A stretch of 64,000 nt of DNA from contig OZ076409.1 in NCBI GenBank assembly GCA_964187785.1, forward strand, positions 61,568,001 to 61,632,000, written 5' to 3'. Position 1 is the first letter of the stretch. The number at the start of each line of letters is the position of its first letter. Position numbers and translations under genes: made by a program. Positions 33,320-61,917 of the stretch are shown in pieces. The notes beneath the pieces were generated by a model. The model was not told where the DNA came from. It did no database searches and saw only the letters and a list, made by a program, of their open reading frames with translations. Source of the DNA: Amphiscolops sp. MND2022 (taxonomy: Eukaryota).

Positions 33320-33386
33320 GATACTTGTTAAAGAACACGAATCGCTGTTGATTAAATTGATTGATTCTTGGCTTTCATGCACTCAC

Positions 33387-34827: not shown

Positions 34828-35334
34828 TTTTTTAGTCGGCGCTTTTCTAGTGAAAAGTGCCCGACTCTTACAGTGGCTAGTTTTTTTTCTTTTTTTTTTC
34901 GTCAGACTACAATCTCACTCTGATTGGTCCACTTTTCTTACAATCGAAACTACTAAAACTACTACCATAAGGCCAAGTCCGGTCAGCGGAAATTGGTGCA
35001 AAAGGGTCCCCCTTTTCATTTTTTACTTTTTTAACGTAACCTACAAAACCGGACGAGACCAAAGGGTCCCCCTTTCGATTTTTTTCGGCATTGTGCGACT
35101 TTTTTCCCAAAATTTTTTAATGTCTCAAAAGAGTCCCCCTTTCGAGTTTTTTGATATTTTGCAACAGAAAAAATGTTAAGAAAGCCCAAAGGGTCCCTCT
35201 TTTACGTTTTTTGGCACTATGCGACATTTTCTGAAAGAAAAAAATCAAAAATTTCAAGTTTTTTTTCAAAAAAAAGTCTTTTGCGCTTTTTGAGCCTTAG
35301 ATATGGTGCCGACTTTAGACGTTCCCGTCTTGTT
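34828..35334 (+). mobile_element. HINE-like repeat, full copy
   Basis: TTTTTAGTCGGCGC...GCCCGACT at the 5' end, and GGTGCCGACTTTAGACGTTCCCGTCTTGTT at the 3' end (stem AGACG/CGTCT). Confidence 0.75.
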
Positions 35335-35479
35335 TGGCCAACCTACGGTACTTTCATTGCTATCAGCTCAGGGCCTCTAAATAGGCATACCTAAGTTTCT
35401 TGTGTATATGTGCGAAATTTCATATCTCGTGACACTTTTCGACTCTGCTTAAAACTGAAGGGCCTGAGATGCCAAAGTA

Positions 35480-36126
35480 CGAGGTTTCGAGTCCCGCACT
35501 AAGCCAAATTGTTATTCTTGCAAACGTTGAGGAAAGTTTTGGGGTTTTTTCGGCACTATGCGACTTTTTTCTGATTTTTTAAACTGTAACCCATAACCCC
35601 ATCTTTAGCAGAAACAAAACGTTTGGCGAGCATAGAGGACCATCTTTTTCTCGGCACTATGAGACTCACTGAAGAATTTTTCAATTTTGATTTTCTGACA
35701 TTTTTTGTTTTCCGAGCCCTACGGTGACTTCTTTGAATATTTTTGATCATGTGGAACTTTTTTGATCGTGCGACTTTTCTCAAAAATACTCTTTCTCAAA
35801 AACTTTCAATTGGCCAAAGGGTACGCCCTTCACATTTAAAAACGTTTTCGGCTGGAACAAAGCGTTTTGCGAACTTTCTTTTTGTTCTGTCTCTTTCTGT
35901 TTGGATTTGTTGGCACTATGAGACTTTTTCCAAAGCGAATAGTTACGAATTTTTTCCAAATAAAATCGGTTTCTCTGTGTTTCCACTTGAGGAAAAAGCG
36001 GTTTCGAGTCTGGTGGATACTTTTTGGGTAATTTTGATTTTCACAAAAGTGTTTCTTAGCACATTCAGAAAGCTTCGCTTTTTTAACCTTGAGCGGCTTG
36101 CCGACTTCGGTCGTTTGCGGCCTGTT
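35480..36126 (+). mobile_element. HINE-like repeat, diverged copy
   Basis: Internal CGGCACTATGCGACTTTTT motifs and 3' end TGCCGACTTCGGTCGTTTGCGGCCTGTT. Confidence 0.5.
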
Positions 36127-37712: not shown

Positions 37713-37828
37713 TACATTTTGAAAATCTGTTTTGCAATTTACAGAACTAAAAGTCCAAAGTGTTGGAGAATTCTCCAGCACTTTGGACTTTTAGTTCTGT
37801 AAATTACAAAATAGATTTTCAAAATGTA
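37713..37828. repeat. 116-bp near-perfect palindrome
   Basis: 58-bp arms centred on GAGAA|TTCTC, 3 mismatches. Confidence 0.9.
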
Positions 37829-37975: not shown

Positions 37976-38381
37976 TCATTTTTAGTTTACTTTGAACCTT
38001 TGTAACATAAAATCAACACTTTGATTCAATTCTTCTATGCGCAGACACTGTTACTGTTGCTCGGGAGCCTAGGTGATCGTGTTTTGACTGTCTAATTTGT
38101 TAAGTAACTCAAAGTTTTTCCCTGTATAAAATCAGGAAAACATGATTGGGGAAAAGACAGTTTCTCGATTTGTTTGGCAAAGTTATAGCCGAGCTGACTT
38201 TCTCAACAATTCTGCAGCTTTCAGCAAAAACGGCATCCCAACTATCGGTTTCTGGCTGGCCCCGTCAACAAAGTGGAATGAAAATTATTTCTGTGAATGG
38301 GTGAGTTGGCTCACAGCTTACGGTGTTCTTTTCAAAAAAAAGTAAAGGCACTTTTATTAAAAAGTTGGTTTATGTATGTAC

Positions 38382-38611
38382 CTTTTTTGTAGGAGTAGGA
38401 ACTCGGCTCCAACCCCGAAGCCACAGCATGTGATGAGGATGATGAGGAGAAAGGAGAGAGTATCCTTGATCATCTCAATCAACATGAGCACCTTGGGTCC
38501 GAGGGCCTCCACCACACTGAATGTATGGAGTAACTTGAAGTAGTTAGTCAGAATGCAAAGTCCGTAGAACAACTTCGCTGCTGTCATCCAGTTGCTGTTT
38601 TCTGTCGCACT
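38382..38611 (-). CDS. TRPM-like channel exon (S4, S4-S5 linker, S5)
   Basis: AAKLFYGLCILTNYFKLLHTFSVVEALGPKVLMLIEMIKDTLSFLLII matches the TRPM LL.IF.V...LGPK..M...M..D motif. AG/GT bounded, phase 0 to 2. Confidence 0.92.
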
Positions 38612-38810
38612 CTGCATAAAAATCATAGAAAACATAAAGTTATAACTTGGTAAATTTAGAGTCGCAGTGTCGAAAAAGTTCCCAAGAGGGGACTCGTGCG
38701 TCTCATACAGCTGTGTAGATGAAGTAAATATAGCATTTTCAAAGGGGGACCCTTTGGCCCCTTTAATGCTCCTTAAATATTTCCATATTCCACAATGAGT
38801 TAAAACTAAC

Positions 38811-38942
38811 ATCAGGAGTGAAGCCTCGAAGAACTCCCGCAACGAGCATGAACAGGGTGGTGACGAGTTCACTCGAATTCCACACGTCCGAAAAGTACCT
38901 CCTGTACTTCTGGAGAATGTTGCCGACTCCTGTCTTGGAACC
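38811..38942 (-). CDS. TRPM-like channel exon (S2-S3 linker, S3)
   Basis: GSKTGVGNILQKYRRYFSDVWNSSELVTTLFMLVAGVLR (Y..D.WN motif), phase 0-0. Confidence 0.9.
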
Positions 38943-39083
38943 CTGCAAAACGAATGAGGATAAAAAACAAACTGTTTGCCAGAAACTTATTGATGTCAAT
39001 GCTATTCTACACTACGTTTCATTCGTATTTCACAATGTGGAAAAGTTTGCTAGCCTACCCTGAGGGTAACCCTTATCGTACAA

Positions 39084-39293
39084 CGGCTACCAGACAAAGG
39101 CGCCCCAGTCAAAGACGACTGGCGGTTTGATAACTCCATCCCCCTCCAGTTAAGTAATCATCAGTTTTTATTTCTAAGAAATAAAAACGGTTCTAATTGA
39201 AAATTGGCCAGGTGCTTTGCATTGGGGCGCTTGTGACTGGTTTCGCTTATGCTTCTAAAATGATTTTGACTGGCACGCTTTTGTCTGTACACG
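39084..39293. mobile_element. Short MITE-like element
   Basis: Imperfect TIRs CGGCTACCAGACAAAGGCG / CGCTTTTGTCTGTACACG, flanked by CGTACAA / AGTACAA. Confidence 0.5.
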
Positions 39294-39958
39294 AGTACAA
39301 TTCTGCTACTATGATTATAGAAAACTAATTATTCTTTAATCATAGTGGAAGTTGGATGGAAATTTAGTCAAGCATTTCTTCTGCCTATAAGACATTTGCC
39401 AAGTCTCGATAGCTTAATATCTTTTCCGAGATGAAAAGCCATGGGCTTAACTTATTTGAGAAAACTATTCCAAGACGTCTCAGAGTCGAAACACGAAAGC
39501 GGCTTTCTGCATCTCCAAGTTTTGTAACTCGCATATAACAATCAACAACAAGGAACAATTCACGAAAATAGTAGCATTTAAGAATCGGACACTTCTGCTT
39601 ACAAACAGTGATGAATGAAAGACAGACCATAATTTTATTGTTGCCATTTTCATTTTAAATTGTGAAAGTGAGTTAAACGTTAACAGTGCAGTAATGAAAA
39701 AACTGAAAGTGCTTAAAAGGGTGTACAGAAAATTCAACATAAGTACTGAAAATTTCTCTAAAAAATACAAAAATTTACTTCCAGTTCAATAGTGATCTAA
39801 CTGCAAGTTATTGTTTGACCAATTATCCGTTTCAAACTTTTTAAACATTGGATGTAAACACAAATGGTTTATCCAACCTCTGAATGAGGGAGCGAAAGAT
39901 CTGAGTTTCAGGAAGTGGTATTTTCCTCAAGTTTGTGTAGTTTAAGAATAGATCTGAC

Positions 39959-40466
39959 CTGATAAATGACCTCTCCGAAAAGGTTAAACTGCCAGTACCA
40001 CAAAACCACCTCCATAATAGCGTGATCAGACCACCAATGAATCCTGTCATCGTAGAAGAACAACAGAAATGCCGAAAAGTACAACACAAACCAAATCTTG
40101 CTAAACGCGTACCACCAAAAGGTCGAAAAGGGGGTGTAGTAAGCGAACAATCTCAGATACTCGAAAGGATACTTAGCCCGGTGCAAAAACCCGATATCTT
40201 TCTCTGGTTTTTTCTCCCCCGCTCCGGCCAGTTTCGCAGCCTTAATTCTTTGTGAGTCGTTTTTGAGTTCGACAATTTGCCGGTCTTTAACGTAATCAAT
40301 GTTGAGATACAGAAAAGGAATGAACTGCGCCATGTTAAGCAGAGCTAGACTGTTGTTGATTCTCATTTCGCCATACCATTCTTTCATCAGAATATCTTCG
40401 CAACCAGGAGCAGCTGCAAATTCTTTGAAACCGATTCTTTGAGCGAAACTGATCGCCGTGCAGCCA
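39959..40466 (-). CDS. TRPM-like channel exon (end of MHR4, pre-S1, S1, S2)
   Basis: GCTAISFAQRIGFKEFAAAPGCEDILMKEWYGEM (cf. F.AH...Q.LL...W.G) through YYTPFSTFWW...EVVLWYWQFNLFGEVIYQ, phase 2 to 0. Confidence 0.9.
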
Positions 40467-40649
40467 CTGCAAACAACACGTCTCATAAAGTTCATCCATA
40501 AATGTATACAAGAAAAGTATATCATAGAATAAAAATGAAACACATGGAACAAAAAGCAGTAAAGTTTTGAAAGGAATAAAATACCTGATAAAAAATTAAA
40601 TTTTGTTGAATATAGTTAGTGATATCTACTGAATAGACCTCAGCGATGT

Positions 40650-41077
40650 TTTTAACGGGCCTATTTTCCTTTTAAGGAAAAAAGCCCGACTATTACAGTG
40701 ACAAGTTTTTTTCTTTTTTTTTTCGTCAGATAAAAGAATGCGTAGTTGACACTTTTTACAGAACTACTGAACTACTGGACCGGCAAATGGAAACGCATCT
40801 AAGTCAGTGCTAAGGGTCCCCCTCTCATTTATTCCATTTTTAACGTAAGATACAAAACCAGACGAGACTGTAGAGTCCCCCCTTTGACTTTTTCGGCACT
40901 GGGCGACTTTTTTCCGAATTTTTTTTGTCTCCAAAGGATCCCCCTTCAAATTTTTTGATGTTTTGCAACAAACTGAATTTTCAAAAAGCCCAAAGAGTTT
41001 CCCTTTTAACAATTTTGAAAGTTTTGCGCTTTTTGAGCCTTAGATATAGCGCCGACTCTAGACGTTCCCGTCTTGTT
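40650..41077 (+). mobile_element. HINE-like repeat copy
   Basis: AAAAAAGCCCGACTATTACAGTG at the 5' side and GCGCCGACTCTAGACGTTCCCGTCTTGTT at the 3' end. Confidence 0.7.
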
Positions 41078-41733
41078 ATGTTTTCATAACTGTAGTGGCA
41101 TCCTTAAAGAATGTGACTCAGATGTCACAAGTTGAAACTATTCTCAATTCTAATTGGTTGAGCAGGGACAGCTTTTCAAAACCTTATCTTTTCAAGATGT
41201 TTCAAGATCATTTCGAAGGGAGCATGGTCCAAACTTGGAAAAACTAACATTTCAATAGTTTTGTTCATAAGTTCAAGATTCCACTGTGCGCTGTATCTTC
41301 ACTTATAAGTATACGCATACGGCACTGTCAATGGGAAATCGTTCAAAAGTTAACAAATGACGTATATCTTTTAAATTAAAAAGTCTGATCTACAGAAACA
41401 TTTTTAAAACGTTTTCCATATGGTAAAAACGAAAATCAATCTGTCAGCCGCTGTTTTTTTTTTCAAATTTTGTTATGTTCAAATTTTACATTTTAAAAGA
41501 GGGGTTTTCCACAGGTTTTAAGATCAAAGATATTTGAACTGTTTTTAAATAAAAGAACTTAAAATGGAAAATGTTTCAGCCTGAGGAAACCAAGTTTCTA
41601 CCATTTTCGGTTTTCATTCTACCAAATTTTGTACAATTTCCTACGACTGAACATTTACCTGCCAAGCATATATTTTCATAGAATGATTTAAAGTCTTCTA
41701 AATGAATTAACCAAACAAAATATCTAAGGTTAC

Positions 41734-43465
41734 TGTCGCAGGCTGCCGCCTGTGACGGTACATTAATAACGACGTCAGCGGAAAATCAGGAAATCGTCCC
41801 AGGTACCCTACCCACGTTTTAAACTTTCCCTTACTGAAACTTATATTTACTAGTTGATCACATTCATTTTACTTATTCAAGTGCATTTTCACATAATTGT
41901 TCATGATATTAGTCTGTTAAAATTACGATTTGGAGCTATCCAAATCAAGTTGTGATTGAAATTGTAAAAGGTAGTTGTTGAAATTAATCAAAGCGGTAAC
42001 GTACAATAAGCAAGTTAATCGCGAGAAGGAAACGTGTTCAAGTAAGAAAACGTCCCTTCTCGGCGATGTAACTTTCAGCACGGTTATTAGCCAATCAGAG
42101 CTCTCCTTTTTACTAATTATGAGTGCTTTATTTATGGTGGCCGGATATGGCCAATTGACTAAGCGGCGCTAATTTGAATCAGTCCCACAGTCAAATGGAC
42201 AGCTCCGGCCAATTCGAGCTTAATGATGCTTTTGTTACATAATTGGATCAGTACTTACGCGGAGCTATTAGAATCATGTTTTTAGACTAAATGAATACGG
42301 TTGTGACGTTTTGATGTTTGTATACCTTTGATTTGGATAAAGGGACGATTATGGCCTTTTACCATGTTCTTCATATGTGCAATACATGTTATGAATTTGG
42401 GCCTATTCTGGCTTTGATATGCGAGTGTATTTTCGTGAATACCAATGCAATATTAGGATTCCATACATAGTAATACATTCCGTTTTTAGCTTAACATGCA
42501 GTAAACTTGTGCCGGCACGTGCCTTCATTTTACGTTACTATAAAATATGCAAATTGTGGTATTTGTTTACATCACACATTAAGCGGTCTTAACCGATAAA
42601 TTGTTTGAAGTTGCTACTTAAGATGATGACTCTGAATTCCATTCCTTAAATGTCCCCCGGAAATATGTAGTTGTCGGGGATTTTCTTATGATGATTGTAA
42701 AATCCTATGATTTGTCTTGATCAAACTATGTAAAAAATGTGTGTGTCATCCCTTTAGGGGTATAAATACCCGTACCCCTGCAGGAAGACTCATACTTTGT
42801 ATTTCTCTTCATTTGATAAAGACGTTCATAATACAAACGGTTTCACTGTTAACATTTCGGAATTGATAATTCAAGTATTCAATCCGGTTCGGTCTTAATG
42901 CCTACTACAAGAAAGCAAAAGAAAACAAGGAAATCTAGAGGATTAGAGATTCTCTCTGACATTGAAAACCTTGACATAATGTTAGGTGAAAATCACTTCA
43001 ATGACATGGGGAGAGACGAAAGTCTCGATGGAACTTCCATTAGAAGACAGGAAAGTGTTACAAGCAATAACTTAGAAAATGAGGAAATGAATCTCCATTC
43101 TGATCATAGAAATCCCGAAACTGGGACTAGTGCCGGTTACGACCGAATCACAGCAAGTATAGATTCTCAAGCTGAGATCAATAAGTTATCGTGTGAACTA
43201 AACTCTAGAATATCTAGAGAGATGGATGAGATGATGAACAGTGTTAGTTCTCAAATCCAGAGAGCCATAAGTGATGCCATCAATAACCAAGTTTTGCCAC
43301 AAATTCAAAACGTTATTATGGCCGGTTCAGGACAGGAGACTAGAAGGGGATGGGAGAGATCTGACGAGAGACCGGAAAGTTATTCCGAAGTTCAACACAA
43401 CGCGAAAACTAGAACTACTCTCAATAATGAACATGGTGATAAAACACAACGTAATGTTCATGACA
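41734..43465 (+). repeat. 5' LTR (1732 bp)
   Basis: Direct repeat of 52797-54528. About 9 substitutions spotted by eye, no indels. Confidence 0.97.
42761..42768 (+). promoter_or_regulatory. Putative LTR TATA box
   Basis: TATAAATA within GGGGTATAAATACCC, about 135 nt upstream of the gag ATG. Copy at 53824. Confidence 0.6.
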
Positions 43466-44592
43466 TGGTGACAGGAGACAACGAATCTCCAAATCCAGTT
43501 CCTGAGTTTCTCACAGGACGCATCTCATCCCGAAATCATCTCGACAGGTCCTTCGAGGACGTCAACCTCAACACGACGATCCCAGCACAACAGAGAATCG
43601 CTACGGCTATTGACTCCGACCCTATCACTCGACTGGCAGACGTCTTGACTACAATGCAGAATAGACCGACAGCCCAACAACTTACCATACGCCCAGTCAA
43701 CTCAAATACCATGACATTCGATGGCAAAAGTGAGAAATTCGATTTGTTCGAAGACCTATTTCACACTATGATCAAGATGCAGCCAGAAATGACTGAGCAA
43801 ATGAAGATCAATCACTTCCACTCTTTATTGAGGAAGAACGCTCTTCAAACGTTCAGAAATATCAGCTCAAGCAACCGACAAACTCTAGAGGACGTATTAG
43901 TCATCTTTAGACGGAAATACGTCAAGCCCGAGTCACAGGCGACTGCCAAACATAAATGGCACCGTCTGGTCTTCGATCCCAACACGATGAAACTGCCTGA
44001 CTTTCTCGAAGAATTAAACCAAGGAGCCGAGAAGGCGTTTGGTGATCATGCGCAGAAAATGATTGACAGCTTGCTTTACGCAAAACTGCCACCAAAACTG
44101 AAGCGGTCCGTCAACATGGCCAGATTAGAAAATGGCTCATACGATGAGATAGTTGCTCATTTGGAGAGAGAATTAGAGCTTAACGCCCTCGAGGAGTCAG
44201 ATGACCTACCGATGGCCACAATGACCTCCTCGACTACGAAACCTAAAACCCCTCTGTCCACAGGGCAACTGTCCGATATCACTTGCAATTATTGCAAGGA
44301 AAAGGGCCACATGGTCAAGGACTGCGAAAAACTGAAAAAGAAAAAAGAAAAGGATGCCCAACAAGGCAAGTCGACGCAGAAGAAAACATATCCGGAGTGT
44401 GGCATTTGTGGGAAAAATAACCACCCGGAGGAGAGATGTTGGCAAGGCGCTGGTGCACATCTTAAACCCAAACGCACTAGACCTGAGGACTCAACTGACA
44501 ACAAGCCCAATCCCAAGGCTCAGAAACCTCAGACCAAACCGACATCATCGGGCTCCCAATCCTCATATTCTGATGACGAGTCAAAAAACTAA
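42898..44592 (+). CDS. gag: Gag (564 aa), initiating inside the 5' LTR
   Basis: Intact ORF. Capsid-like region from TFDGKSEKF, two knuckles CNYCKEKGHMVKDC and CGICGKNNHPEERC. Confidence 0.92.
   Translation: MPTTRKQKKTRKSRGLEILSDIENLDIMLGENHFNDMGRDESLDGTSIRRQESVTSNNLENEEMNLHSDHRNPETGTSAGYDRITASIDSQAEINKLSCELNSRISREMDEMMNSVSSQIQRAISDAINNQVLPQIQNVIMAGSGQETRRGWERSDERPESYSEVQHNAKTRTTLNNEHGDKTQRNVHDMVTGDNESPNPVPEFLTGRISSRNHLDRSFEDVNLNTTIPAQQRIATAIDSDPITRLADVLTTMQNRPTAQQLTIRPVNSNTMTFDGKSEKFDLFEDLFHTMIKMQPEMTEQMKINHFHSLLRKNALQTFRNISSSNRQTLEDVLVIFRRKYVKPESQATAKHKWHRLVFDPNTMKLPDFLEELNQGAEKAFGDHAQKMIDSLLYAKLPPKLKRSVNMARLENGSYDEIVAHLERELELNALEESDDLPMATMTSSTTKPKTPLSTGQLSDITCNYCKEKGHMVKDCEKLKKKKEKDAQQGKSTQKKTYPECGICGKNNHPEERCWQGAGAHLKPKRTRPEDSTDNKPNPKAQKPQTKPTSSGSQSSYSDDESKN
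43466..43477 (+). promoter_or_regulatory. Primer binding site, embedded in the gag reading frame
   Basis: TGGTGACAGGAG directly after the LTR-terminal CA. Close to the tRNA-Leu-type PBS TGGTGTCAGGAG; tRNA identity not verified. Confidence 0.8.
44583..44589 (+). promoter_or_regulatory. Putative -1 ribosomal frameshift heptamer A_AAA_AAC
   Basis: Immediately before the gag stop. The downstream protease frame is -1 relative to gag. Confidence 0.7.
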
Positions 44593-47500
44593 CTTCGCCA
44601 CGACTCCAATATAACGAATTAATATCTGTCCGACAATACATCAGATCGGACCCTCCAACACAAACTTTCCACCAATACAATTAACAATTGATGGGCTATC
44701 CCTCTGTTGTCTGGCAGCAGCAGATGGAAAAAGCCACCATCATCACCTACAATAACACCCATTTGTTCCAGAAACCAATTCCTGTTTGGGACCCTGATCA
44801 CACCACCACCTTCACTACCCGATTCAGGCCCATTCCACTAATCGATGATTACAACCCGACATACATCGACCCAGACTATGGCAGAGATCCCTACTGGGAG
44901 ACCGAGCTTTACAACCAAGATTTACTGCAATTCCAATATGTCCTAGACGATATTGAACATTATAATAGAACAGCCCACGAGAACCCTCCAATTACCCATA
45001 ACAAGAAAACAAGAGCGCTAATTGAAAACTGGCAAATGAATGATGGCACAAACCATCCAGTGTTCCCAAACCCATTGGGGACCGAGACCCATGACAGCAA
45101 TGTTGAACCCATACCACAATCATTGCTAGACGAGAAACAGTTCCAGAATGTCTTAATCACTAGAGACGGTGAACCAGACTGTTTACCCCTGTCGACTAAC
45201 ATCAATCTCAAATGCAAGAAACGCATGTTGTACTTCCTAATGGACTTTGGGGAATTGACCATAGATGGACTTATTGACACTGGAGCGCTGTCCAGTGCAA
45301 TTCCCGAAATGGACCTCCGGAAAATTCGACTTTTATCTCCACAATCTGTTATCCGGGAAGGTCCGCCTCCGAATTTCCAAATAATGGTCGCTAATGGGCA
45401 ATTGGAAACTCCTAAGAGTACAATAGAGCTCAAATTCGAAGTTGGTGACATTGAGTTCCATGAAATCTTCATAGTGATGGAACATCTGACAGGTCCGATC
45501 ATTGGACTAATGTTCCTTCAAAGAAACCATACAGTGCTGGACATGAGACAAGGGATACTGAATTTCCCGTTCTTTTCGATGCAGCTCAAAACAGCTGATC
45601 ACAAGTATTCAAATGTATTAGAGCCAATTCTCAACCCTATTGAGATAACCATTCCACCAAATGATAAAGTCCTAATTAGGACCAATTCCCTACTCTACCC
45701 TGAGAATGCTGTCACTGGAATTTTGCAACCGAGCGACCTTCTACATGAAGAAGGCGACATCACATTTTGCCCAGCTTTGGTCACTCTGAATGACGGCAAT
45801 ATACTGATACCAGTGAACAACTTCACAGACCACCCTTATAAACTCAAAAAGGGACTTCATATTGCCAATTTCTCTGTCATGACGCCAGAACAGATGAAGT
45901 ACGTCAAACCGATAGATCCGGCATCAACCTGGCACCTTCTACAGAATGACCAGGAGCAGGCAGCCCACTATGTCAGCAGTCTCATCAAGACCAATAGAAA
46001 TCCGCAAAACTCTGAAAATTATTGGTTCCCAACTCCAGAAAACCCCTGGAAATCCGGAGGAACACACACCTATACAAAAACGAATCCTTCGAGAATTACA
46101 GGCCTTACAAGACCTAGAGACACTTGACCCCACCAAAGATGAAGACTCACGTGCATAATTCTTAGAAAACTTCGATTGGAAAGATTCCACCCTTACTCCT
46201 GAAGAGAAGGAGAAAATAGAGGAATTGTTAGTGGAATTCCATGACATCTTTGCACGACACCGATTTGATATAGGCATGAACGAGGACTTCAAGGTGAAAC
46301 TGACGCCTAAAGACGATTCCCCAGCCTATAGCCAAAGCCTTCCAGCTCCTATCAATCTGAAGGAGGACATCCTAGTCGAATTAGCCATGTTACACAAATA
46401 TGGCATCATCACCACCCTACCGTTCTCGAAATATGCGAGCCCAATATTCGCACAAAAGAAACCGAACGGAAAACTCCGACTCTTGGTTGACTTGAGAAAA
46501 ATCAACAACCTCATCTCGGATGATTATATCAACAACAATCATCCCGTCAGTACGCTAGTTGATGCCGCCCAACACTTGGCAGGCAAAAAACTGTTCTGTA
46601 AATTAGACTGTTCGCAGGCATACCACTGCCTACCAATGGCTGACCAACGTTCAATCGAAATGTTGGCTTTCAATTTTGCCAGTCGCACATTCGCCTACAG
46701 ACGTTTGGCACAAATCCTTAGTCGGTCACTATCCGCATTCTCGAGTTTCATGAGGGAATACCTCGACAAAGTCATCAAAGCGGATCAGTGTGCCCAGTAT
46801 GTGGACGATATCGGCATCGCAGCCAATGATGTTGACCACCTCATGACGAACCTGAGAGCTACATTCAAATGCATTCAGGAAGCAGGCCTTAAGTTAACAA
46901 TGCACAAATGTCATTTCGGTGCAAAAGAAATCGATTTTCTCGGACGGACTATTACCCCACAAGGCGTCAAACCCCAGAAACAGAATGTGCAAAACTTTCT
47001 GGAAAAGACCAAATTCCCGAAGTCGAAAAAGGCTTTACAGCGCTATTTGGGATTCCTAAACTACTACAGGAATTATGTCCCAAGACTTTCAGAACGCCTT
47101 GCTCCATTCTACAAGATGCTGAAGAGTGACGAAAAGGTCCTAGTATCGAAGGAATTAGTCCAGCAATTTGAAGAAATCAATAGGGCGCTAGACAAATGTT
47201 GCGACTTGGCCCTACAACAACCCATTCCGAACAAACAAATAGCACTAATGACTGATGCAAGTTTTGGTGCAGCCGGATACGCGGTCCTAATCGAAGACGA
47301 CCCAAGCCAGAAATTTACGTCACACAGAAAATCGTATGCACCAGTCGCATATGGATCAAAAACTTTCACCCCAGCGCAGATAAAGATGTCAATTTATGCC
47401 AAAGAATTCCTTGCAATTTATTTTGCATTCAAAGAATTCGGACATATATTTTGGGGTGCGCCGAAACCGGTCATCATCCTTACAGACAATAAAGCTGTCA

Positions 47501-49790
47501 CGAGATTTTTCCAAACAAAAATAATACCCCCAGCCCTGTGGAACGCGTGTGATTATGTCATTCAGTTCAACTTTGTCATAGCACACATCCCAGGAGCACA
47601 AAATACAGCTGCCGACTATTTGTCCCGATTGGAAGCAGATCCAACGGACAAATTGGTGATGAAAATTCGTGAAGATTTACAAACACTACCCATCGAAATC
47701 AATGTCCAATCCGCAGGGGTATCGCAAGAAGAACAAATCTTCTACACCAATGACGACGATGAGACAGAAGAACAGTTGTGGGCAAGAAAAGAAGCAATCA
47801 GGAAAAATCCAGCAACTGATGAACCCACTGTTACTATACAAACTCTGTCAACAAATCTAGTCAAGCAACACCCCGATATACAAGTCCGATTGAGGAAAAC
47901 GAACCAGATCATTATCGAGCAATCCAAAGATGCGGTACTACAACAATTGAAAGCAAAATTGCTTCATGAAGAGTATTCAGAAAATCTACTGCACCAGGAT
48001 GCCCGATATAGACATTACGCAAACAATCTGGAACGAATTGTACTAAAGGACGAAATCCTGACAAGGCAATATTTCGATGAAACAGGGAATGTTAAATACC
48101 ATCAAATTTTACTCCCGCAACATTTACTCCAGGAATTGCTCCAATCTCTTCACGAGACAGCGCATAAACATCCTGGGATTTCAAAAATGCTGCAGGAAAT
48201 TCGACAGAGGTATTACTACCCTAGCATGGCTAAACACGTCAAAAAGTGGGTAGAAGGGTGCGAACAATGTGCCAGAGACAAAAGAGTCCCTAACGCAACG
48301 ATCACACCTGAGCTGCTTAACTTGCCCGAATGGGACCTCGGACCTGAAGACGCCATGCAAATAGACCTATTGCCGAATCTTCCCCCAAGTGGTGGGTATG
48401 AAAACGTCTTAACAGCAATTGATGTATTCTCCAGATATTTGTTCGCCTATCCCCTTACGGACGCATCAGCGATCAATGTAGCAAAAGCGATCATTGACAT
48501 CATGACTAAACACTCATATCTACCAACGACTCTTATCACTGATAAAGGTACTGCATTTACTTCTACAATTATTGCGGAGGTTACGCAGATTTTGGGCATC
48601 ACACTCAAAAGTGCAACAACAAAACACCCGCAGACAATTGGGAAATTGGAGCGAACTCATGCCTCATTGAAAACAAATATCAAAATGGCATGTGGAGAAT
48701 ATCGCCGACAATGGCACAAATACTTGCCATTAGCAGTACTAAATCATAATACTACCTACCACGCCAGCATCGGTTGCGAGCCAACGAGGGTATTTCATGG
48801 AAGAATTCCATTTAATATTTTAGATCACAAGCTTGGAAATAATCCAAACGAGCAAATTAACCCCACAACCGAATTTGCTGAAGAAATCCAAAACCGGACA
48901 AAAATCCTGATTGACAAAACGAAGCAAAACATTATGCAATCGTATATCAAGTACAAAGAATATTACGACCGCAAAGCAAAAGCCGCTCCACTAAAGGAGA
49001 ACGAATACTGTTTTGTCTTACAGCCGAAAGCGGACAATCAAGGATCGAAAATTCCATTCCGCGATTATCGTTGGGTTGGACCATTTGTAGTCCAAAAGGT
49101 TTTGCCAAATGAAAACTATATAGTACGACGAATCAATACGAACAAAACTCAAATTTTGCATCGCATTCGTCTTAGAAGGTTTGTCCCCTATCAACCGCTT
49201 GAGGACAATTCCCGAGAACAACAGTTGCAGACAGATGAAGAAATTGTCATTCCGCAAGATGATTTATACGTCATAACGTGGGAAACCGACTTTGGCGAGC
49301 AACTAGTTACACGAGGCAACGAGACTATTCCGACCAGCATGCCGAACGGCCGAACGTGCCAGAAGCGAATACAAATGACGTAACCGAGAATGAACCGGAT
49401 TACATAATCACGAGTGACGAAACAAGTTACGCTGACCACGCGGCGCGGAACCGGATTGAAAGATTAAATCATGACGTCACAAAAAGGAATGAAGCTAGTG
49501 AAGCGGCTACCAATGACAAATCTGATTGGACGAATCCGACCGTTTCCCCAAAAAACCAAGAAAAATCATTGCCGAATACGGCAGATAGACCGGAAAACGA
49601 TGAAAATTTTACAGAAAGAAACTTGACGAATGAAAACGATACACAAAAATCTCCAAACAGGGGGGATGATATTATCGTGCCCGAAATATCCGAAAACGAT
49701 GCTAGAAATGAGAGTCTGAGCCCTAGAGGAGGGAAATATAACCTCAGACCTAACCCTAACCCAAACTACTCAGAAGACTTCAGATACTAG
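44589..49790 (+). pseudogene. pol: Pol (protease, dUTPase-like segment, RT, RNase H, integrase, acidic tail) with few lesions
   Basis: LIDTGA, KLDCSQAY, YVDD, MTDAS, ILTDN, HHCC, QIDLL / ITDKG / LERTH, WVGPF, C-terminal KYNLRP. Stops at 44682 and 46156, frameshifts near 46045 and 49350. Confidence 0.93.
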
Positions 49791-50025
49791 GGAAGACTGA
49801 ATTCAGTTCAGGAGATGAGTCCCGATTTGGATTTTCTTTTCTTTTATCCTTTAGCCCCTTGAGAGTCAGTATCTTTTGAATAAATAATGGGACGTATGAA
49901 AGATGCCTTACAGAGGTAACAATACGGGATCAAGAAATCAAAAGAAGGAAAGTATATAAATAAAGGCAACAAAACAAAAAATCAACAAAGTTTACAGTTC
50001 AAAGTACATACATACATATGTACAG

Positions 50026-51226
50026 TTAGTCTTTAGATGAACCAGGCTCACTGACTCCAGCAGTGGATGACGAAGAGGCGCGAGAAGCGCGACGTTCCAT
50101 TTTCCTTCGCTTAGTGCTAGTAGGGGCTTTCACAGCAGACATATCAGCTACGGAACATTGATCTTCTGGCGCACCACGGACCAGAGATTTTTGAGGGGTG
50201 GAAAGAGCTGCCCGGTAGGAAGCCAACAATGACTTATAAATCTTCGAACGCCCGAAATTGTCCACGTACGTCCAAGGATCATAATCGGGAGCAAATGCAG
50301 AACGCCCGAAAGAAGAAGAGAAGTCAATGAACTTGGCCAGATTCCCATCATCACTACAGAAAGCAACTGCGTCACGCACGGTAGCTACGTAACTTTGACT
50401 GGGAAGAATGACGTCTGTCAATCTGCTATGACGTCCAGAAGTGGAAACTGTCCCGAAAGTGACATCAGGATACGTGGGGCTAACAGACGTAGCGCACAAG
50501 CAACACAACTTGAACAAATAGAATAGGCAGCTACGATTACGGAGGAATTCCAGCTCGGACAGGAACTCAATTCAGGTAGCTGAGACTCAGAGGCCTCGAT
50601 GACCTTCAAGGCAGACTCTAAAGCTGACAAGTCAGCTTCTTGGACTTCCTCGTCATCAGACTGGATGGGCGTACTCGACCTTCGGTTCTCAGCAGTCGTC
50701 AATACTAATTCAGGAGGGTCATTGACTTGTTCTTGGCTCTGCAGCAGGGCAGACGCAGGATGTTTCTCTTCGTGTGTAACGATGCGTTGTGTCTGTTGCA
50801 TCCGTTGGAGCATAGATTCAGCATATGATGTTACATCTGGGTCACTGTCAGCACTGTGAGTAGAGGTGATATCATCAGTACGGCTTCGAGACAACTCTTG
50901 GGACACACTCGGATTTTGGATTTGTGGTCCAGCTTCGGTCGGTGGATTAGCCGCTGAAGTAGTGGTAGCAGGTCTGACTGGTACATCGGCAACTTCAGTT
51001 GTTTGATTCTCTAAATAAAAAGAGATAAAGTTTGGCGGTATGCTTCCTCGAAAAGAATCCATTCTACCGCATTAGAAACCTTCCGGAAGTACTTGAGAAT
51101 TTGAACAAAATGTGCTGTCACGCGCTTATTAGTGGAAACAGGAAGCTTATTGTGAACGTATTTAGCCCTGATCAAGCTAAGCTAGTTCAATATACGAAAA
51201 CCAGACCAACCTGTGCTTGAAGACAT
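50026..51226 (-). pseudogene. Antisense accessory gene of the element (putatively spliced, ~335 aa, one frameshift)
   Basis: Exon 1 ATGTCTTCAAGCACAG (51226-51211), GT-AG intron 51210-51011, then the 214-aa frame, switching near 50572 into the 163-aa frame ending at 50026. Confidence 0.6.
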
Positions 51227-52099
51227 GTTTTTCCCGGGTTGTTGCTCCAAAAAGAGTTGTTTTGAACTGACGATTGTGAGATGTGGATGGTGGCCTTTCA
51301 CGGTCGAGGATGAAGGGGAATAAGGATACTCCGAAGAGAATGCGTTGGACGTAGACAAATAGATGGCAATTGGGAGATTGCAGATAAAGAAAACAAATGT
51401 AAGGTGATCGGAATTAAATAGAATTGGAATTGGATGAAGCAATTGAAAAGTTGGAGTTCGTGGCTGAAGAAATTACCAGACTAATATTATTTGATTATTT
51501 ACATATTTAAAATGTACACGGAGTCTGCCAGCGAAGTGTACAAAGGACTTTGTTATTTACAGCTTATTTAGTTAGAGGCCAGTTATGGCCGTTTGCCCTG
51601 TTTTGTTTTACCGTTTGGTCCAGTTACCCTTAGTTAGAATTTTCGCCATCTTGAATTACTTAGATTTATTATTTTCGCCATTTTTATTATTTAATTTTAC
51701 AATTTATCGAAGCTTAACGCTGATTGGATGAAGCCATTACGAGAAGTTTTGGTGACGCGTGCCGCTAATTGTTTACAAGCGACCCGACCTGTTAATTACC
51801 CACTTGAGACGGATGTAGTTGATATTCATAAGTCGAGCGCCATTCACACCTCTTCTAGTGATGACACTGATGAGGGGTAAACATCAGGCTATCAAAGGGA
51901 ACCGACCAATTAAAGAATTCCATTCAGAAAAGTTTACGACGAATCGGGACGATTAACCTAAGATTCTCCCGCCGAACTGGGAAGTTCGGAAAAAGGCCCG
52001 ATTCGACTAAATTCTTGAAACTGATAAATTCATTCTACTACAAACGTCTCTTCAATACAGTCGCTACGAGCAGCTTCAAAAATAGCAAAAAAGATAATC

Positions 52100-52885
52100 A
52101 TGAGCAAATACAACTTAGCTAGAAGATTGTTCGATCTGGAGGAATACGACTCAGATGAGTCTGAAAAATCAGTAATATACATTTTCAGCAGCGAGGGAGA
52201 GTCTTCGGACTAGGAAACCGACTGCTCCACGGACACGGAGCAACTTTTTGCAAGAATCGAAAGGAAAGTCACCTCCAGCCCCATGTTAATCGGGGGCCGC
52301 ATAATGACTGTGGAGGAACCCTCAGAAGATGAACCAGAAGCTGGCCCCAGCTCTTCCCAGACGCAAACAGATGTAACTCCAAAATTTGACCACAGGTACT
52401 TTGACCAGGAGATGTGTTATGCTCCCCCAAAGAAGTTGGGAAAGTCAAGGATAGAAATTTGCAAGACTCTATTACCAGTGCCTGAGTCACCCATGTCACC
52501 GCCTGACCATGAGAGAGGACCAAGTTTGGACACCCCCCTGATGCAGCCTACAATGGGTGGTTCTCACGCGTCGTTTCATGTACAGAACACAAGGCCGTAC
52601 GAAGACGTGAGCAATAAACTGTACTCTGGTTGTATGGTGTGTGGCAGATCCTCAGAAGCAATAAAGAAAGAGAAAGTAGAATGGTATGTTGCAAGGTCCA
52701 AGCCGCGAGGAGAGCCCGAGTACATCATGAAAATCAGAAGGGAGGCATATGAGAACGGTCTCAACGCCGGGGCATTCCTCTTCATAACACCCGCAGTGTC
52801 GCAGGCTGCCGCCTGTGATGGTACATTAATAACGACGTCAGCGGAAAATCAGGAAATCGTCCCAGGTACCCTACCCACGTTTTAA
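52100..52885 (+). pseudogene. Accessory ORF-X (~261 aa, one internal TAG at 52211), ending 89 nt inside the 3' LTR
   Basis: ATG at 52100 is in frame with the 200-aa ORF. Acidic N-terminus, CMVC motif, C-terminal VSQAAACDG...PGTLPTF. The C-terminal peptide is conserved in the solo LTR. Confidence 0.7.
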
Positions 52886-54528
52886 ACTTTCCCTTACTGA
52901 AACTTATATTTACTAGTTGATCACATTCATTTTACTTATTCAAGTTCATTTTCACATAATTGTTCATGATATTAGTCTGTTAAAATTACGATTTGGAGCT
53001 ATCCAAATCAAGTTGTGATTGAAATTGTAAAAGGTAGTTGTTGAAATTAATCAAAGCGGTAACGTACAATAAGCAAGTTAATCGCGAGAAGGAAACGTGT
53101 TCAAGTAAGAAAACGTCCCTTCTCGGCGATGTAACTTTCAGCACGGTTATTAGCCAATCAGAGCTCTCCTTTTTACTAATTATGAGTGCTTTATTTATGG
53201 TGGCCGGATATGGCCAATTGACTAAGCGGCGCTAATTTGAATCAGTCCCACAGTCAAATGGACGGCTCCGGCCAATTCGAGCTTAATGATGCTTTTGTTA
53301 CATAATTGGATCAGTACTTACGCGGAGCTATTAGAATCATGTTTTTAGACTAAATGAATACGGTTGTGACGTTTTGATGTTTGTATACCTTTGATTTGGA
53401 TAAAGGGACGATTATGGCCTTTTACCATGTTCTTCATATGTGCAATACATGTTATGAATTTGGGCCTATTCTGGCTTTGATATGCGAGTGTATTTTCGTG
53501 AATATCAATGCAATATTAGGATTCCATACATAGTAATACATTCCGATTTTAGCTTAACATGCAGTAAACTTGTGCCGGCACGTGCCTTCATTTTACGTTA
53601 CTATAAAATATGCAAATTGTGGTATTTGTTTACATCACACATTAAGCGGTCTTAACCGATAAATTGTTTGAAGTTGCTACTTAAGATGATGACTCTGAAT
53701 TCCATTCCTTAAATGTCCCCCGGAAATATGTAGTTGTCGGGGATTTTCTTATGATGATTGTAAAATCCTATGATTTGTCTTGATCAAACTATGTAAAAAA
53801 TGTGTGTGTCATCCCTTTAGGGGTATAAATACCCGTACCCCTGCAGGAAGACTCATACTTTGTATTTCTCTTCATTTGATAAAGACGTTCATAATACAAA
53901 CGGTTTCACTGTTAACATTTCGGAATTGATAATTCAAGTATTCAATCCGGTTCGGTCTTAATGCCTACTACAAGAAAGCAAAAGAAAACAAGGAAATCTA
54001 GAGGATTAGAGATTCTCTCTGACATTGGAAACCTTGACATAATGTTAGGTGAAAATCACTTCAATGACATGGGAAGAGACGAAAGTCTCGATGGAACTTC
54101 CATTAGAAGACAGGAAAGTGTTACAAGCAATAACTTAGAAAATGAGGAAATGAATCTCCATTCTGATCATAGAAATCCCGAAACTGGGACTAGTGCCGGT
54201 TACGACCGAATCACAGCAAGTATAGATTCTCAAGCTGAGATCAATAAGTTATCGTGTGAACTAAACTCTAGAATATCTAGAGAGATGGATGAGATGATGA
54301 ACAGTGTTAGTTCTCTAATCCAGAGAGCCATAAGTGATGCCATCAATAACCAAGTTTTGCCACAAATTCAAAACGTTATTATGGCCGGTTCAGGACAGGA
54401 GACTAGAAGGGGATGAGAGAGATCTGACGAGAGACCGGAAAGTTATTCCGAAGTTCAACACAACGCGAAAACTAGAACTACTCTCAATAATGAACATGGT
54501 GATAAAACACAACGTAATGTTCATGACA
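52797..54528 (+). repeat. 3' LTR (1732 bp), carrying a second copy of the gag 5' end (53961-54528, stop at 54414)
   Basis: Direct repeat of 41734-43465. Confidence 0.97.
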
Positions 54529-54824
54529 GTTACATACTTTGTATTAGTTCTTTTATTGCCATCTCCGTAGTGTATTGGCTACGCTTGAGCCTTAAAGATG
54601 TGTTTTGAGTAATATCAGAGCATAAAATATCCGGTGCTCAAAAAATTTAAAACTCGAAATTGAAACATTTACACAGTCAACTGTCATTTTCATCATTGTT
54701 TTGACGAACCATCCAAGTACCATCAAAAGGCTGTCTATGGGAAGTTTTCTCAATAAAAAAAGTTGTTCCATCGCTGGGCCATGGGATGAAATGCAGTCTA
54801 TTGGATCTTTAAGAGATTACTCAC

Positions 54825-56402: not shown

Positions 56403-56636
56403 TGTTATATACGGTTCAATCCGATTCTTACGACCTCTACCGAGATTCGGTTCACTTACATGAAAACTGTCTAGTGTCTACATACCAGCTGGGGTTGTTT
56501 ACAAACAAACTCAATCAAACGTTAAATTACATTAGATACATTTATACGAAGTGAAAAGCTGAGATATAGATTTGAACTAGAGATCTTTATTTTACAATAT
56601 TCTTTTCTCTTAAACTTAGATTACCAGAATACAACA
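56403..56636 (+). repeat. 5' LTR
   Basis: Direct repeat of 62089-62322. Confidence 0.95.
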
Positions 56637-56689
56637 TGGCGCAGTCAGCCAATTTTTAAAACAATTGAACAAAAACTTCTTAATACAGA

Positions 56690-59600
56690 ATGGCGGAGAA
56701 AAACATAGTCCCGAACCTCGAAGCGAAAGCCAGAGACGGGAATCCGGTATTCACACCGAGACAATGGCTAGAGAGGTTCCGGCAGTTCTGTAAACGGGAA
56801 CACAAAATAGACATCGCACCGCTACTGAAAGGAGAAGATATAACAGACACCGGGTGGACCGGAAAAGAACAATTGATTCGAGATTTTCTGTGGGGAGTGG
56901 GACCGGAAGCACTCTACCAAATAACTAGGGCCGAATATAAAACAGAACCCGACAGTATAAAAGTGAAATACTTAATCCGATTGTTCACCGAATTTTACAT
57001 GCCGAAAAGAAACACGTACCATAACCGCGGAGACTTCTTCTGGGCAAAACAGACAGAAGAGGAAACACCCGAGGAATTTTGGAGACGGTTGATCGAAATC
57101 GAAAAAGAATGTAACTTCAATACCATCTCGGCAGAAGAATTGTTGATATCAAAATACATGACCGCAATCACCGATAAAAAAAATTACGGGATGAAATAAT
57201 GAAAGAGAAAACATTGGAACTGAAGAAAGTAATCAAATTGATCAAACAAAACACATACGAGAAGAAAAATAAAAAGAACACAATACCGGAAGCTTTGATA
57301 TCAACAAAAGAAAAACAAATAATAAAGGAAGAACCGATACAAAGAATGGAACGATTCGGTGTCAGACCGAAAAGTAAAAACTTCGGAAACCGAACATGCA
57401 GATTCTGCGCCGCACCAAACTGGACACCGATGCACAAATGCCCCGCACTAGATGTTAACTGTAACAAATGCGGTAAGAAAGGACATTATGCGAAAGCATG
57501 CAGACAGAAGACAAACAGCAACCGAACCGTGAAAAGACTAACCGAAGACGAACCGAACGAATCAGACAGATCATCAAGTGAATCCGAAGAGAGCATTCAC
57601 CACATTAAAGAGATAAAGAAAATCGACGAAACAAATAAACACTTCACCACAACGCTCATAATCAATGGAGTAACAAAAGAATTTATAACAGACACCGGAT
57701 CACCAATATCACTAATGCCACCGGATGAAAGAATTAAAAAATCAACCGAAATACAGAAAATAACAAACCGATACCAAGATGTGAATAAAAACGAAGTAAT
57801 GTTTCGGAGAAAAATTCCGGTAAATGTCGAATACGAAAATAACAAACAAAAAATGGAGATTTTTATAACCGAAAGAACAGATATGACACCATTACTCGGA
57901 ATGGATTGGATGAAGAAATTCAAACTAACGATCAGCAAAATACAATTGGCCGACAACAACCAATCAGAACGCGAGAAAATATTCAACAAATTTCCGGACC
58001 TATTTTAAAACAACGAAACGATAAAGGACACCGAAATAAATATTCAATTAAAACCAGGACACTATCCGGTAAAACAAAAAGCAAGACCGATACCATTACA
58101 CCTTCAAGAAGACGTCGGACGTGAACTAGGAAAACAAATAAAATCCGGACACTTAGAAAAGATAAAAGACGTAGACGAAGATTGTTTTGTATCTCCGGTA
58201 GTCAAAACCGTGAAAAGTGACAAATCAGTGAAGATAGCACTAGACTCAAGAAAAATGAACGATAGTTGCATTAAAATGAGACCTCACATGCCGAATATGG
58301 AGGAACTACTAAACCAAATTTCGGTAGAAATTTCACGCGACCGAACGGTACAACTATTTATATCAAAAATTGAATTAGACTATGCGTACGGACAAATGAA
58401 ACTATCCAAAGAAACAAGCCGACAATGCGTATTTGCCTTAACCGGAGGAAAATTTAGCGGATATTACCGATTAAAAAAGGGTTTTACGGACTTGCCGACA
58501 TACCCACGATATTCCTAGAAAAGATCGACCGAACACTCGCATATTGCACATCGGCGTGGCTGGACGATATAATTGTAGTAACACGGGGAAATAAACAAGA
58601 CCACGAGAAGAAATTATTTGACGTATTGAATAAACTGGAAAAAGCCGGCTACCGAGCAAGCAAAAAGAAATCAGAATTCTTCATGAACCGAATAAAATGG
58701 CTGGGACACGAAATCTACGAAAACGGAATTAAACCGAACGAAGAAAAAATAGAAGCCAAACAAAAATTAAAACCACCGGAGAACACAAAAGAACTGAAAT
58801 TTCTCGGGGCGATACAATACATGGCAAAATTTTTACCGAAACTTTCGGAACAAACCGACCGATTACGAAAATTACTGAAAAAGAATGAGCCATGGATATG
58901 GGGAGATGAACAACAAAAAGATTTCAAAAAAATAAAACAAATGTTAACCGAAGGCCCATGCTTGGCACACTACGCAAAAACAAAGATAATTCAGTAACAA
59001 CGGATGCCAGCACCACCGGACTGCGGATAACACTATGGCAGAAACAAGATGACGGATATACGAAACCGATAGCATTCGGGAGCAGATACTTGAACGATAC
59101 CGAAAAGGAATATTCTATCGGTGAATTAGAATTACTAGCAGTAGTGTGGGGACTCGAAAAATTCCGATTTTTTTATACGGTAAGAAGGTGTATCTTTATA
59201 CCGATCATCAAGCACTAGAGCCATTAATCAAGAGAAACCGGAGCAACAGACAGTATAGCGCGCAATTAACAAGATGGTTAGACCGTCTAACTCACTTTGA
59301 TATATCAATACAGCATATCGCAGGCAGTAATTTGAAATTCACCGACTACCTCAGTAGAAATCCGGTAGGGGGAGCCAAACCCGAAGAAATCTACGACGAA
59401 GAATACGTCATCAACATACTTACCGAACAAGCAAAATTGAATATAAAATACGGACCAATATTCGCTGCCCAATCAGAATGTAAGAAAGTGAAAACCGAAA
59501 TAAAGAATGATACGGCCGAAGAACAAATTGAGAAATGCGGTAGCCAATCACACACGAATAGAACATTCGAGAACAAATACGGCGTGAACAAAAATAAACG

Positions 59601-61917
59601 AAACGAAGAAGCTACATCCGGGCAGTCCGAAATTAGCGCGCTAGAGCCAAGTTATTCAAAGAAAGAGAGTCAAAATGCAAATCGAATTACAAAAGTTCAA
59701 AATTCAATTACGGAAATTACCGAAATGGATCGCGAAAATTTTTACCACTGGGGCGCCACACGCGAAATTATGGAGATTATTCGCAGACGGAATAATAGCA
59801 CAGAGACACGCCGACTAGTAGAGCAACGAAATGGATTATCCCGACCAGGAACATTACGACGTCGGTATGACCACTACACTCAAAGAACGGTATTCGCTCC
59901 AACGAGACCCAACAAAAGAAGCCGAGAGGAAATTGCCGAGATAGACGCAGAGATCATGAGGAGAGCCAATCGATTGGGCGGCGGATACCGACCAATAGCC
60001 GAGGAAGAAGAAGAACCGGAAGAAATACGGGAAGAAGGCGAACTAGAAATCGAAAATGCCGAGACGGAAGAAGACAGCGTCATAATGCGGGGCGACAATC
60101 TACCAATAGTAGATCTTAGCAAATACAATACAGAAGGAAAACGGGCGCATTATATACAAATAAACCACATCGTGGGAAAATTAACAAGCAACAAAAAGAT
60201 TACCGAAGAACATATCAAAAAAGCAGAATTTGAGTTCATGATGGACTTAAAAACACTCATCGCAAAAACCGATGCAATCGATCCGGAACTAACCCGCGTC
60301 AGAACCAGCATGCGGAGAGAAGATCGAGAGACAATTCCGGATGGCTACCGAAATGCATTCGACAAACTATCAATCAGATGGGGATTGATCTTCGTCGATG
60401 ACCAAATCGTGATACCCATCGACTTGAGACGAAGACTCCTGGACATCCTTCATTTCGGTCACTCCGGTATAACAAAAATGATGTCAGAAGCACGCATATT
60501 CTGGTGGCCCAGAATGAAACAGGATATCGAGAACAAAGTAAAAGATTGCACAGCCTGCTTTGCATCAGGTAAAAACCTTAAATATCAATCACCGAAAAAA
60601 CACTACGGAAAATTAGAAAAACTAACCGAACCCGGCCAAGAATTACAAATTGATTTTACCGGAAAATTACATAACAAAAATATACACGGAGAAGTACAGA
60701 TACTAATAGCGGTAGATAGATTCAGTAAATGGCCGACCGTAAAAATATGTAAAACGGCGGAGACCAAAGAAGTCACAAATTTTCTATCGAGTAATTTTAA
60801 CTTATACGGAATACCGGAAAAGATCAAATCCGATAAAGGAGGAGCGTTTGTTTCGAAAAATTACCGAGAATTTTGCAAGAACCGAAATATTGAAATTGAA
60901 TATTGCACCCCCCGAGTACATACGGGAAACGGAGTAGTAGAAAGAGCAATACAATCATTGAAAAACTTAATAATAGCAAGTTTGGAAGACGGTATAAGTT
61001 TAACCGAAAGTGTAAACAGAGCACTACATGTAATGCAATTTCACAATACATACCGGACTAAAGTTAACGCCATTCGAACTACACCACGGTAGAAAACCGA
61101 GAACCGAATTAACGAATATCGTTAAGGACGGAAAATCATACCTATCTAATTGGTCAGAACTGACTGTTTCAGCGCCGAACAGACCAAAGATTCCCATATA
61201 CGTTGGCCGTGATGCGGACGAGGATATTACAAACCACATATTTATGGCGCGAACCAAAACAGAGGAGAAACACCTCGCCGAAAGATCGAAATCACCGAAG
61301 AAGAAAAATTCGTTTAGATACCCTTTTTACTTTGTTGAAAAGAATCATAACAAAAAATCATTGGAAGGAAAATCTCAAAAAAAATACAAACCGCTATAAG
61401 CGGAACCGAAAGTACTATAAAAACAGACTCCGGGAAAATAACTAACCGAAAATTCATTTCGGAACCACTGTTTCAGACCGAGAGGAAAAGCAGAAAAGAA
61501 CCGGTAACAAACGCAACCGGTGAAATCAACCCCAAAAATTGACACTGCCTACGCGGACTGGACGGGAAATACGGCCGTTGGGATGAAATCCTTCGGGACA
61601 TCCTGAACGGTAAATTGAAAATCGTCCAAAATAAAAAGCGGGCAGAAAGCGAAACCGACGATGACGACGAGGATGAAGACGATGAAGAAACGCCGGAAGA
61701 AACCGGAACACCGATAGTATATGACACATCCAAAAGAGACTGGAGATACGTGCCAATACGGACTAACCCAGAGGAAGACACGCTACAACTACACACCGAC
61801 AGCGAAATGCCGGGTGAGAATTCAGAATTACAAAAAGACGCTCTAACCGAAATAGTAAAAAACCGAATAGATACGGTAGCATACCCTATACGGAAAACTT
61901 CTGGGGATGAAAATTAA
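56690..61917 (+). pseudogene. Gag-Pol polyprotein of the 56403-62322 element
   Basis: Twin knuckle CRFC..H.CPA...CNKCGKKGHYAKAC, TDTGSP, ELDYAYGQ, WLDD, TTDAS, ELELLAVVWG, LHFGHSG...CTAC, QIDFTG / KSDKG / VVER. Several stops and frameshifts. Confidence 0.92.

Follow-up and report, generated by a model that had tools for sequence, protein, structure and literature searches.

In the yeast Ty3 element, the long terminal repeats (LTRs) are short and non-coding, a purine tract is present and there are no accessory genes; in the Copia-type Ty1, gag begins inside the 5' LTR, with an overlap of a few tens of bases. Accessory open reading frames (ORFs) running into U3 are found in complex retroviruses (nef of human immunodeficiency virus, bel of foamy viruses), and the plant lineage Retand/Tat possesses a further RNase H of archaeal type. 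According to the available parts of the sources, the antisense ORFs of 97 % of Retand clusters bear TRP28, a domain named after transposases for which DNA binding is predicted (PMC11963269), and gene23 of Grande is driven by a promoter of its own and yields a nuclear product (PMC7264820). The latter source regards both origin and function of these plant ORFs as unknown and urges a search for spliced antisense transcripts (PMC7264820). The same sources describe HBZ of human T-cell leukaemia virus type 1 as an antisense regulatory gene (PMC11963269) driven from the 3' LTR (PMC7264820). Among animals, Gypsy-type elements that have captured additional ORFs or domains include Vesta, Juno and Mag of bdelloids and Burro of planarians; in the available parts of PMC5408684 and PMC6431247, none of these additions (env, GDSL, DEDDy, dUTPase, MATH, BIR) is presented as an antisense gene with several introns. 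In this work, we analysed an element at positions 41734-54528 of a 64,000-nt stretch of DNA (hereafter the window) from Amphiscolops sp. MND2022 (contig OZ076409.1, 61,568,001-61,632,000).

This element is a Ty3/Gypsy retrotransposon with an apparently undescribed combination of features: long LTRs that code for protein at both ends, and a multi-intron antisense gene lying between pol and the 3' LTR. We consider, with a probability of about 0.72, that the whole is explained by an ordinary LTR cycle whose cis-elements overlap the genes, together with a spliced antisense gene that most likely derives from a hAT transposase. The literature searched, with repeat databases outside the search, yielded no description of this combination, and the available parts of papers on animal Gypsy elements with extra ORFs (PMC5408684, PMC6431247, PMC8220671) describe neither an antisense multi-intron gene nor a coding U5. 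The original prediction, made from the sequence of the window, had matched the element to no described lineage; none was found here either, and the tree of relatives (92 unnamed sequences) contained no reference from a named metazoan Gypsy clade (Mag, CsRN1, Gmr1, Cer, Tor, Burro, errantiviruses). The nearest precedent is Retand (Tat; Grande, RIRE2), with its long pol-to-3' LTR region bearing antisense ORFs (2.9-6.6 kb there, ~6.2 kb here). However, Retand hosts are plants and the present host is an animal, Pfam scans of the antisense exons gave no match to TRP28 (PF04195), and four spliceosomal introns interrupt the antisense gene, the main text of PMC11963269 not containing the word 'intron'. 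Furthermore, gag and a sense ORF (ORF-X) overlap the LTRs here, and the purine tract is either degenerate or missing.

The assignment to Ty3/Gypsy comes from pol (44583-49790, + strand), in which Pfam matches follow the order protease, reverse transcriptase (RT), RNase H, integrase (IN). The RT is of Gypsy type and is accompanied by RNase H and an H2C2/DDE integrase; the IN-before-RT order of Gmr1-type elements was not seen among the Pfam matches. The best solved-structure match of Pol is Ty3 Gag-Pol (E 1.2e-45), and the element resembles Ty3 in its domain order, 5-bp target-site duplication (TSD), TG...CA ends, tRNA primer and frameshifted pol. Gag-Pol would be made by a -1 frameshift at the slippery heptamer A-AAA-AAC (44583-44589, +), just 5' of the gag stop, where pol overlaps in the -1 frame. 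A dUTPase domain (PF00692) was additionally found in two Pol proteins of sister families (P0006 and P0026).

Both LTRs (41734-43465 and 52797-54528, +) are 1,732 nt long with TGTC...GACA ends, and the element lies between two copies of the 5-bp TSD GTTAC, at 41729-41733 on the left flank and 54529-54533 on the right. They differ by 9 substitutions and no indels, i.e. a divergence of 0.52 %, whose conversion to an age needs a rate. The 12-mer TGGTGACAGGAG directly abuts the 5' LTR end and forms the primer-binding site (PBS; 43466-43477, +), complementary at 12/12 nt to the 3' end (+CCA) of host tRNA-Leu(CAG). The corresponding tRNA-Leu 3'-end pattern had 855 genome matches against 0 for a control, and ARAGORN called a tRNA gene at one of five matching loci fetched. 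Most of the listed matches among the 855 belong to a long tandem array of the motif (~235-300 nt period) from ~35.59 Mb on G000:C8, made of the primer tRNA or a derivative. These boundaries, as originally predicted, were confirmed in the window and recur family-wide. The integrase attachment ends and the PBS do double as codons: LTR end and PBS translate as D-M-V-T-G, of which the PBS is the in-frame M-V-T-G, and the LTR start falls inside V-S-Q of ORF-X.

We compared the window copy with 31 others, i.e. 15 close copies, 10 picked for a divergent accessory region and 6 from two sister families (B and C), whose Pol is 58-65 % identical over the query to that of the window's family. Exact 5-bp duplications at the same ends were present in 25/31 copies (10/15 close, 9/10 divergent, 6/6 sister-family); one of the others had a single TSD mismatch and five were unscorable (nested, tandem or rearranged). 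In the window's family the LTRs measured ~1.73-1.95 kb; those of family B were shorter (~1.52 kb) and those of family C longer (2.2-2.35 kb). The original prediction would have fallen had other copies carried short LTRs, and the recurrence of long LTRs with TSDs in three families speaks for it. As the window copy is itself rearranged, its long coding repeat might be a one-off duplication, or its antisense gene a passive nested DNA-transposon insertion; given these equal ends and TSDs, a gene, orientation and position common to three families and the purifying selection reported below, we regard this as very improbable.

Exact matches to the LTR start numbered 4,397 in the genome and those to the LTR-end/PBS junction 7,449; in 1.07 Gb, the latter would make the clade at most about a tenth of the genome, an upper bound that takes all as full length. 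The clade is recently active, since LTR pairs are 99.9-100 % identical in 4/10 divergent copies. Its members often lie in or beside one another (L053, L058, L066, L085, L148), and one head-to-tail pair shares a single LTR (L062-L063).

The gag ORF (42898-44592, +; 564 aa) has its codons 1-189 within the LTR, as originally predicted, and its frame is open through the PBS to a capsid-like region (DUF1759 match) and CCHC knuckles, both downstream of the LTR-coded part. The LTR-coded codons are genuine coding sequence under purifying selection: their median ratio of nonsynonymous to synonymous divergence (dN/dS), a check that had been proposed with the prediction, was 0.19 (0.08-0.31; 70 pairs with dS > 0.1; 13 representatives). 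The following 120 codons gave 0.09 (63 pairs), one frameshifted representative stretching the range to 1.22; the pairs have common ancestry, and all dN/dS values given here are descriptive only. In the LTR-coded part, insertions and deletions keep to whole codons; a basic N-terminus and a helical segment are among its conserved blocks. About 193 gag codons are LTR-coded in family B and about 126 in family C; unlike in Ty1, the overlap reaches 126-198 codons in the families studied. The 3' LTR of the window copy holds the ORF-X tail and a second, truncated gag start (53961-54527), with a stop codon at 54414-54416.

A TATA box (42761-42768, +), situated 137 nt 5' of the gag ATG, occupies a stem loop. 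TATA-like boxes 121-146 nt before this ATG occurred in 7/9 promoters scanned, including sublineages with non-alignable U3; among the exceptions, one had its first match mis-picked, and no box was found in family B. In six family-A promoters the TATA sits in a stem loop (z -2.0 to -4.7 against mononucleotide shuffles); the fold of the family C promoter was not significant by the same comparison. The stem is kept with different sequences in the window (42745-42800) and at equivalent places in L048, L076, L083, L087 and L036. We speculate that only the 3'-LTR transcript could form this stem and that it may display UAUAAA as a polyadenylation signal. On the basis of the TATA position, the 5' LTR would divide into U3 (41734 to ~42790) and a mostly gag-coding R-U5 (~42790-43465). 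Sense transcription would begin ~30 nt after the TATA, with the gag start ~110 nt further on, and this RNA would encode Gag and, by the -1 shift, Gag-Pol. Because the tRNA-Leu primer site sits 189 codons inside gag, gag sequence would make up the ~600 nt of U5: the ~680 nt of minus-strand strong-stop DNA, primed inside gag, would carry the gag start to the 3' end and hence into both LTRs.

At 43465-43467, the last LTR base and the two opening bases of the PBS form an in-frame ATG, which all three families share and which might start a second, shorter Gag, as in Ty1 copy-number control. With the capsid-like and CCHC domains all downstream of it, one could go further and suppose that functional Gag starts here and that the LTR-coded frame either specifies a peptide of its own or is incidental. 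This appears improbable, as the 189 upstream codons are in frame, stop-free and under purifying selection and begin at the above distance from a TATA-like box in 7/9 promoters; moreover, attachment-end and PBS sequence alone forces this AUG.

At the other end of the internal region, ORF-X (52100-52885, +; ~261 codons) has its stop codon at 52883-52885, where it has entered the 3' LTR by 89 nt, so that the LTR does open with its last 29 codons, close to what had been predicted. It has an acidic N-terminus, a conserved C-terminal C-x2-C...C-D-G region and a dN/dS of 0.14 (11 usable of 28 pairs), and its LTR-coded tail varies at third positions, except over an almost invariant initial stretch of ~20 nt. 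Sense ORFs also end inside the 3' LTR in family B (by about 14 codons), where the ORF is recognisably homologous to ORF-X, and in family C (by about 31 codons), where it is not. One 1,545-nt tandem array of the ORF-X/LTR junction was observed at G000:C1:47790863-47797071. Since no env family was matched by ORF-X or the antisense exons in Pfam scans, a difference from complex retroviruses, the term 'virus-like' used in the prediction holds for the layout only.

The plus-strand primer would be expected at 52777-52796 (+), where there is no purine tract and the sequence reads as ORF-X codons, the window 3' LTR being preceded by ...CATAACACCCGCAG. A polypurine tract before the 3' LTR, a typical but not classifying feature of Ty3/Gypsy, is absent in the window's sublineage, a point on which the original prediction was silent. 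Twenty sampled LTR starts comprised 17 ORF-X-type junctions and 3 host flanks; in 7/17 junctions a purine run of 6-8 nt reached the border or a position adjacent to it, and in 10/17 the runs did not exceed 4 nt. The run is 8 nt long in family C and interrupted in family B, the exact upstream motif of the window occurs at 735/4,397 LTR starts, and all variants are in-frame ORF-X codons. The priming site would thus have shrunk to a short purine run in some sublineages and to none in that of the window. Because the copies with 99.9-100 % identical LTR pairs are of the purine-free type, a tract is apparently dispensable for precise plus-strand priming, or else the primer is not recognisable as one. 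U3 would carry the ORF-X tail because ORF-X crosses this priming site; the coding LTR may then follow automatically from how promoter, primer site and both ORFs are placed.

Upstream of ORF-X, the antisense ORF visible in the window consists of the start of an exon 1 (50566-51062, - strand; ATG at 51062) joined out of frame to the tail of a last exon, exon 5 (50026-50572, -). The junction (50566-50572) marks a loss of 3,173 nt via 7-nt microhomology, private to this copy, since the junction sequence was found once in the genome; close copies hold ~3.17 kb extra there. Most of exon 1, exons 2-4, the four introns and the start of exon 5 were removed. The window copy, in which pol is also broken near 44682, 46127-46159 and 49330-49383 and ORF-X carries a stop at 52211-52213, is therefore a young, decayed deletion derivative within a high-copy clade of ~15-17 kb Ty3/Gypsy elements. 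The 'compact' layout of the original prediction was not upheld, the full family element measuring ~16 kb. Nor was its ~3 kb with two accessory genes, which is the remnant of a ~6.2-kb region, and the antisense accessory gene is a fragment of a gene of far larger extent.

When intact, this gene spans ~4.2 kb and comprises roughly 1,280 codons in five exons (~660, 162, ~45, ~27 and ~386 codons) separated by four conserved GT-AG introns. In 12 aligned copies, the exons vary at third positions and the introns (~70-110 nt) diverge freely between GT and AG. Introns 1 and 2 lie at identical codons in family B, and 6/6 sister-family copies match three exon profiles on the antisense strand. Purifying selection was seen in exon 2 (dN/dS 0.13; 14/45 pairs usable, 31 saturated), exon 5 (0.10; 15/21 pairs) and the C-terminal part of exon 1 (pN 0.17 vs pS 0.86). 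Relatives of exon 5 formed 580 clusters at 50 % identity (best 150 of 580 examined), with 5,276 candidate places in this genome. A short tandem repeat lies between exons of a family B antisense gene (L142, 1337-1936); the Retand region likewise carries tandem arrays.

Intron 3 is lost exactly in two copies (L047, L069) of one sublineage, the outcome expected from recombination with a spliced antisense cDNA. That antisense introns persist on the packaged strand is an established principle from retrotransposition-indicator cassettes; here, too, they would survive because the packaged RNA reads them backwards, invisible to the spliceosome. Unlike HBZ, the gene starts ~1.7 kb inside the element, at a head-to-head spacer shared with ORF-X (51063-52099; 1,037 nt) that contains strongly conserved non-coding blocks and is a putative bidirectional promoter, with motifs that we take to resemble ETS, YY1 and CCAAT sites, as in bidirectional promoters. 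The gene would be spliced and is probably transcribed from this spacer.

The antisense protein consists of a long disordered N-terminus, a putative BED-type zinc finger, an alpha/beta segment and a helical C-terminal part. The finger motif is invariant in 11/11 proteins, although the BED profile (PF02892) matched weakly and in 2/11 only (E 0.63). Language-model (Atlas) features show a weak likeness to hAT transposases, and the helical part aligns to Hermes 367-583 with weak structural likeness. Finger, alpha/beta segment and helical part would correspond to those of hAT transposases (Hermes) and domesticated hAT genes (FAM200/GTF2IRD2-like); the long disordered N-terminus, the retroelement carrier and the lack of a conserved catalytic acidic residue set the protein apart. 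Regarding the DDE triad, no acidic column was common to the three families at the exon 2 positions tentatively assigned by eye, and none was conserved across families at the tentatively assigned exon 5 positions 232-246. We consider it fairly likely that the protein derives from a hAT transposase and is catalytically dead. A captured host zinc-finger gene or an orphan would equally make a genuine accessory gene; such an origin is the less likely one in view of three separate hAT hints (finger motif, Atlas features, Hermes alignment) and of a domain order that also agrees with hAT.

The product might be a nuclear, oligomeric DNA-binding factor acting as an activator or in anti-silencing for the element, a role that we put forward tentatively, at somewhat less than even odds. 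Between sublineages pol is 90-97 % identical, against 52-55 % for exon 5, 33-49 % for exon 1, 57-92 % for ORF-X and 52-88 % for LTR-coded gag, and the modules reassort. That old accessory variants persist on so uniform a core suggests a conflict with the host's defences, and it is for this reason that the activating role is preferred over that of a self-limiting repressor or integration-targeting tether within the same architecture. A dead DNA-binding transposase body is compatible with either of the latter, frequent nesting of family members with targeting, and self-limitation has a precedent in Ty1, which restricts itself through truncated Gag and antisense RNAs (available part of PMC7175516). 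Nevertheless, the rise of the clade to thousands of copies and the many old variants on near-uniform pol, which look more like host conflict, leave a repressor or tether doubtful.

Elsewhere in the window, LTR elements with short repeats (200-300 nt) and a length of ~5.8-5.9 kb lie at 8084-13896, 22990-28763 and 56403-62323, in local contrast to the 1.7-kb coding LTR; the latter two were scanned and gave gag/integrase matches. A BEL/Pao pol is represented at positions 1-2043 by its 3' part (Peptidase_A17, integrase, DUF5641), and BEL/Pao elements are not known outside animals. Just left of the insertion, host ORFs or exons occupy 38357-40615 (-), of which 38360-38986 matches TRPM-type channels; together with the BEL/Pao sequence, this match indicates an animal host. 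A dispersed short repeat family with tRNA-like motifs (3387-6701, 33264-36126, 40665-41077, 62825-63499) possibly represents a short interspersed nuclear element or a miniature inverted-repeat transposable element; ARAGORN found no tRNA within the window. A palindrome with 58-nt arms, 95 % complementary and without spacer, lies at 37713-37828.

In this clade, a retroelement keeps a four-intron protein gene by antisense orientation, with exact intron loss as internal proof. As the copies number in the thousands and their synonymous divergence is saturated, both the origin and function of an antisense ORF and its splicing become testable, with a class II transposase as the likely donor. A protein-coding U5 of ~600 nt contradicts the assumption of non-coding LTRs made by annotation tools, and each 3' or solo LTR amounts to a promoter and a Gag N-terminal fragment reading into host DNA. 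Young tract-free copies with exact LTR ends raise the question of how the plus-strand primer is specified. It is conceivable, though on balance rather unlikely in all its parts, that we are dealing with an undescribed animal Gypsy clade that has domesticated a transposase as an intron-bearing antisense anti-silencing gene, and whose cis-elements have all merged with coding sequence to such a degree that one active branch primes its plus strand without a polypurine tract. If true, this would provide a retrotransposon analogue of the anti-silencing factors of DNA transposons and an exception to purine-tract priming.

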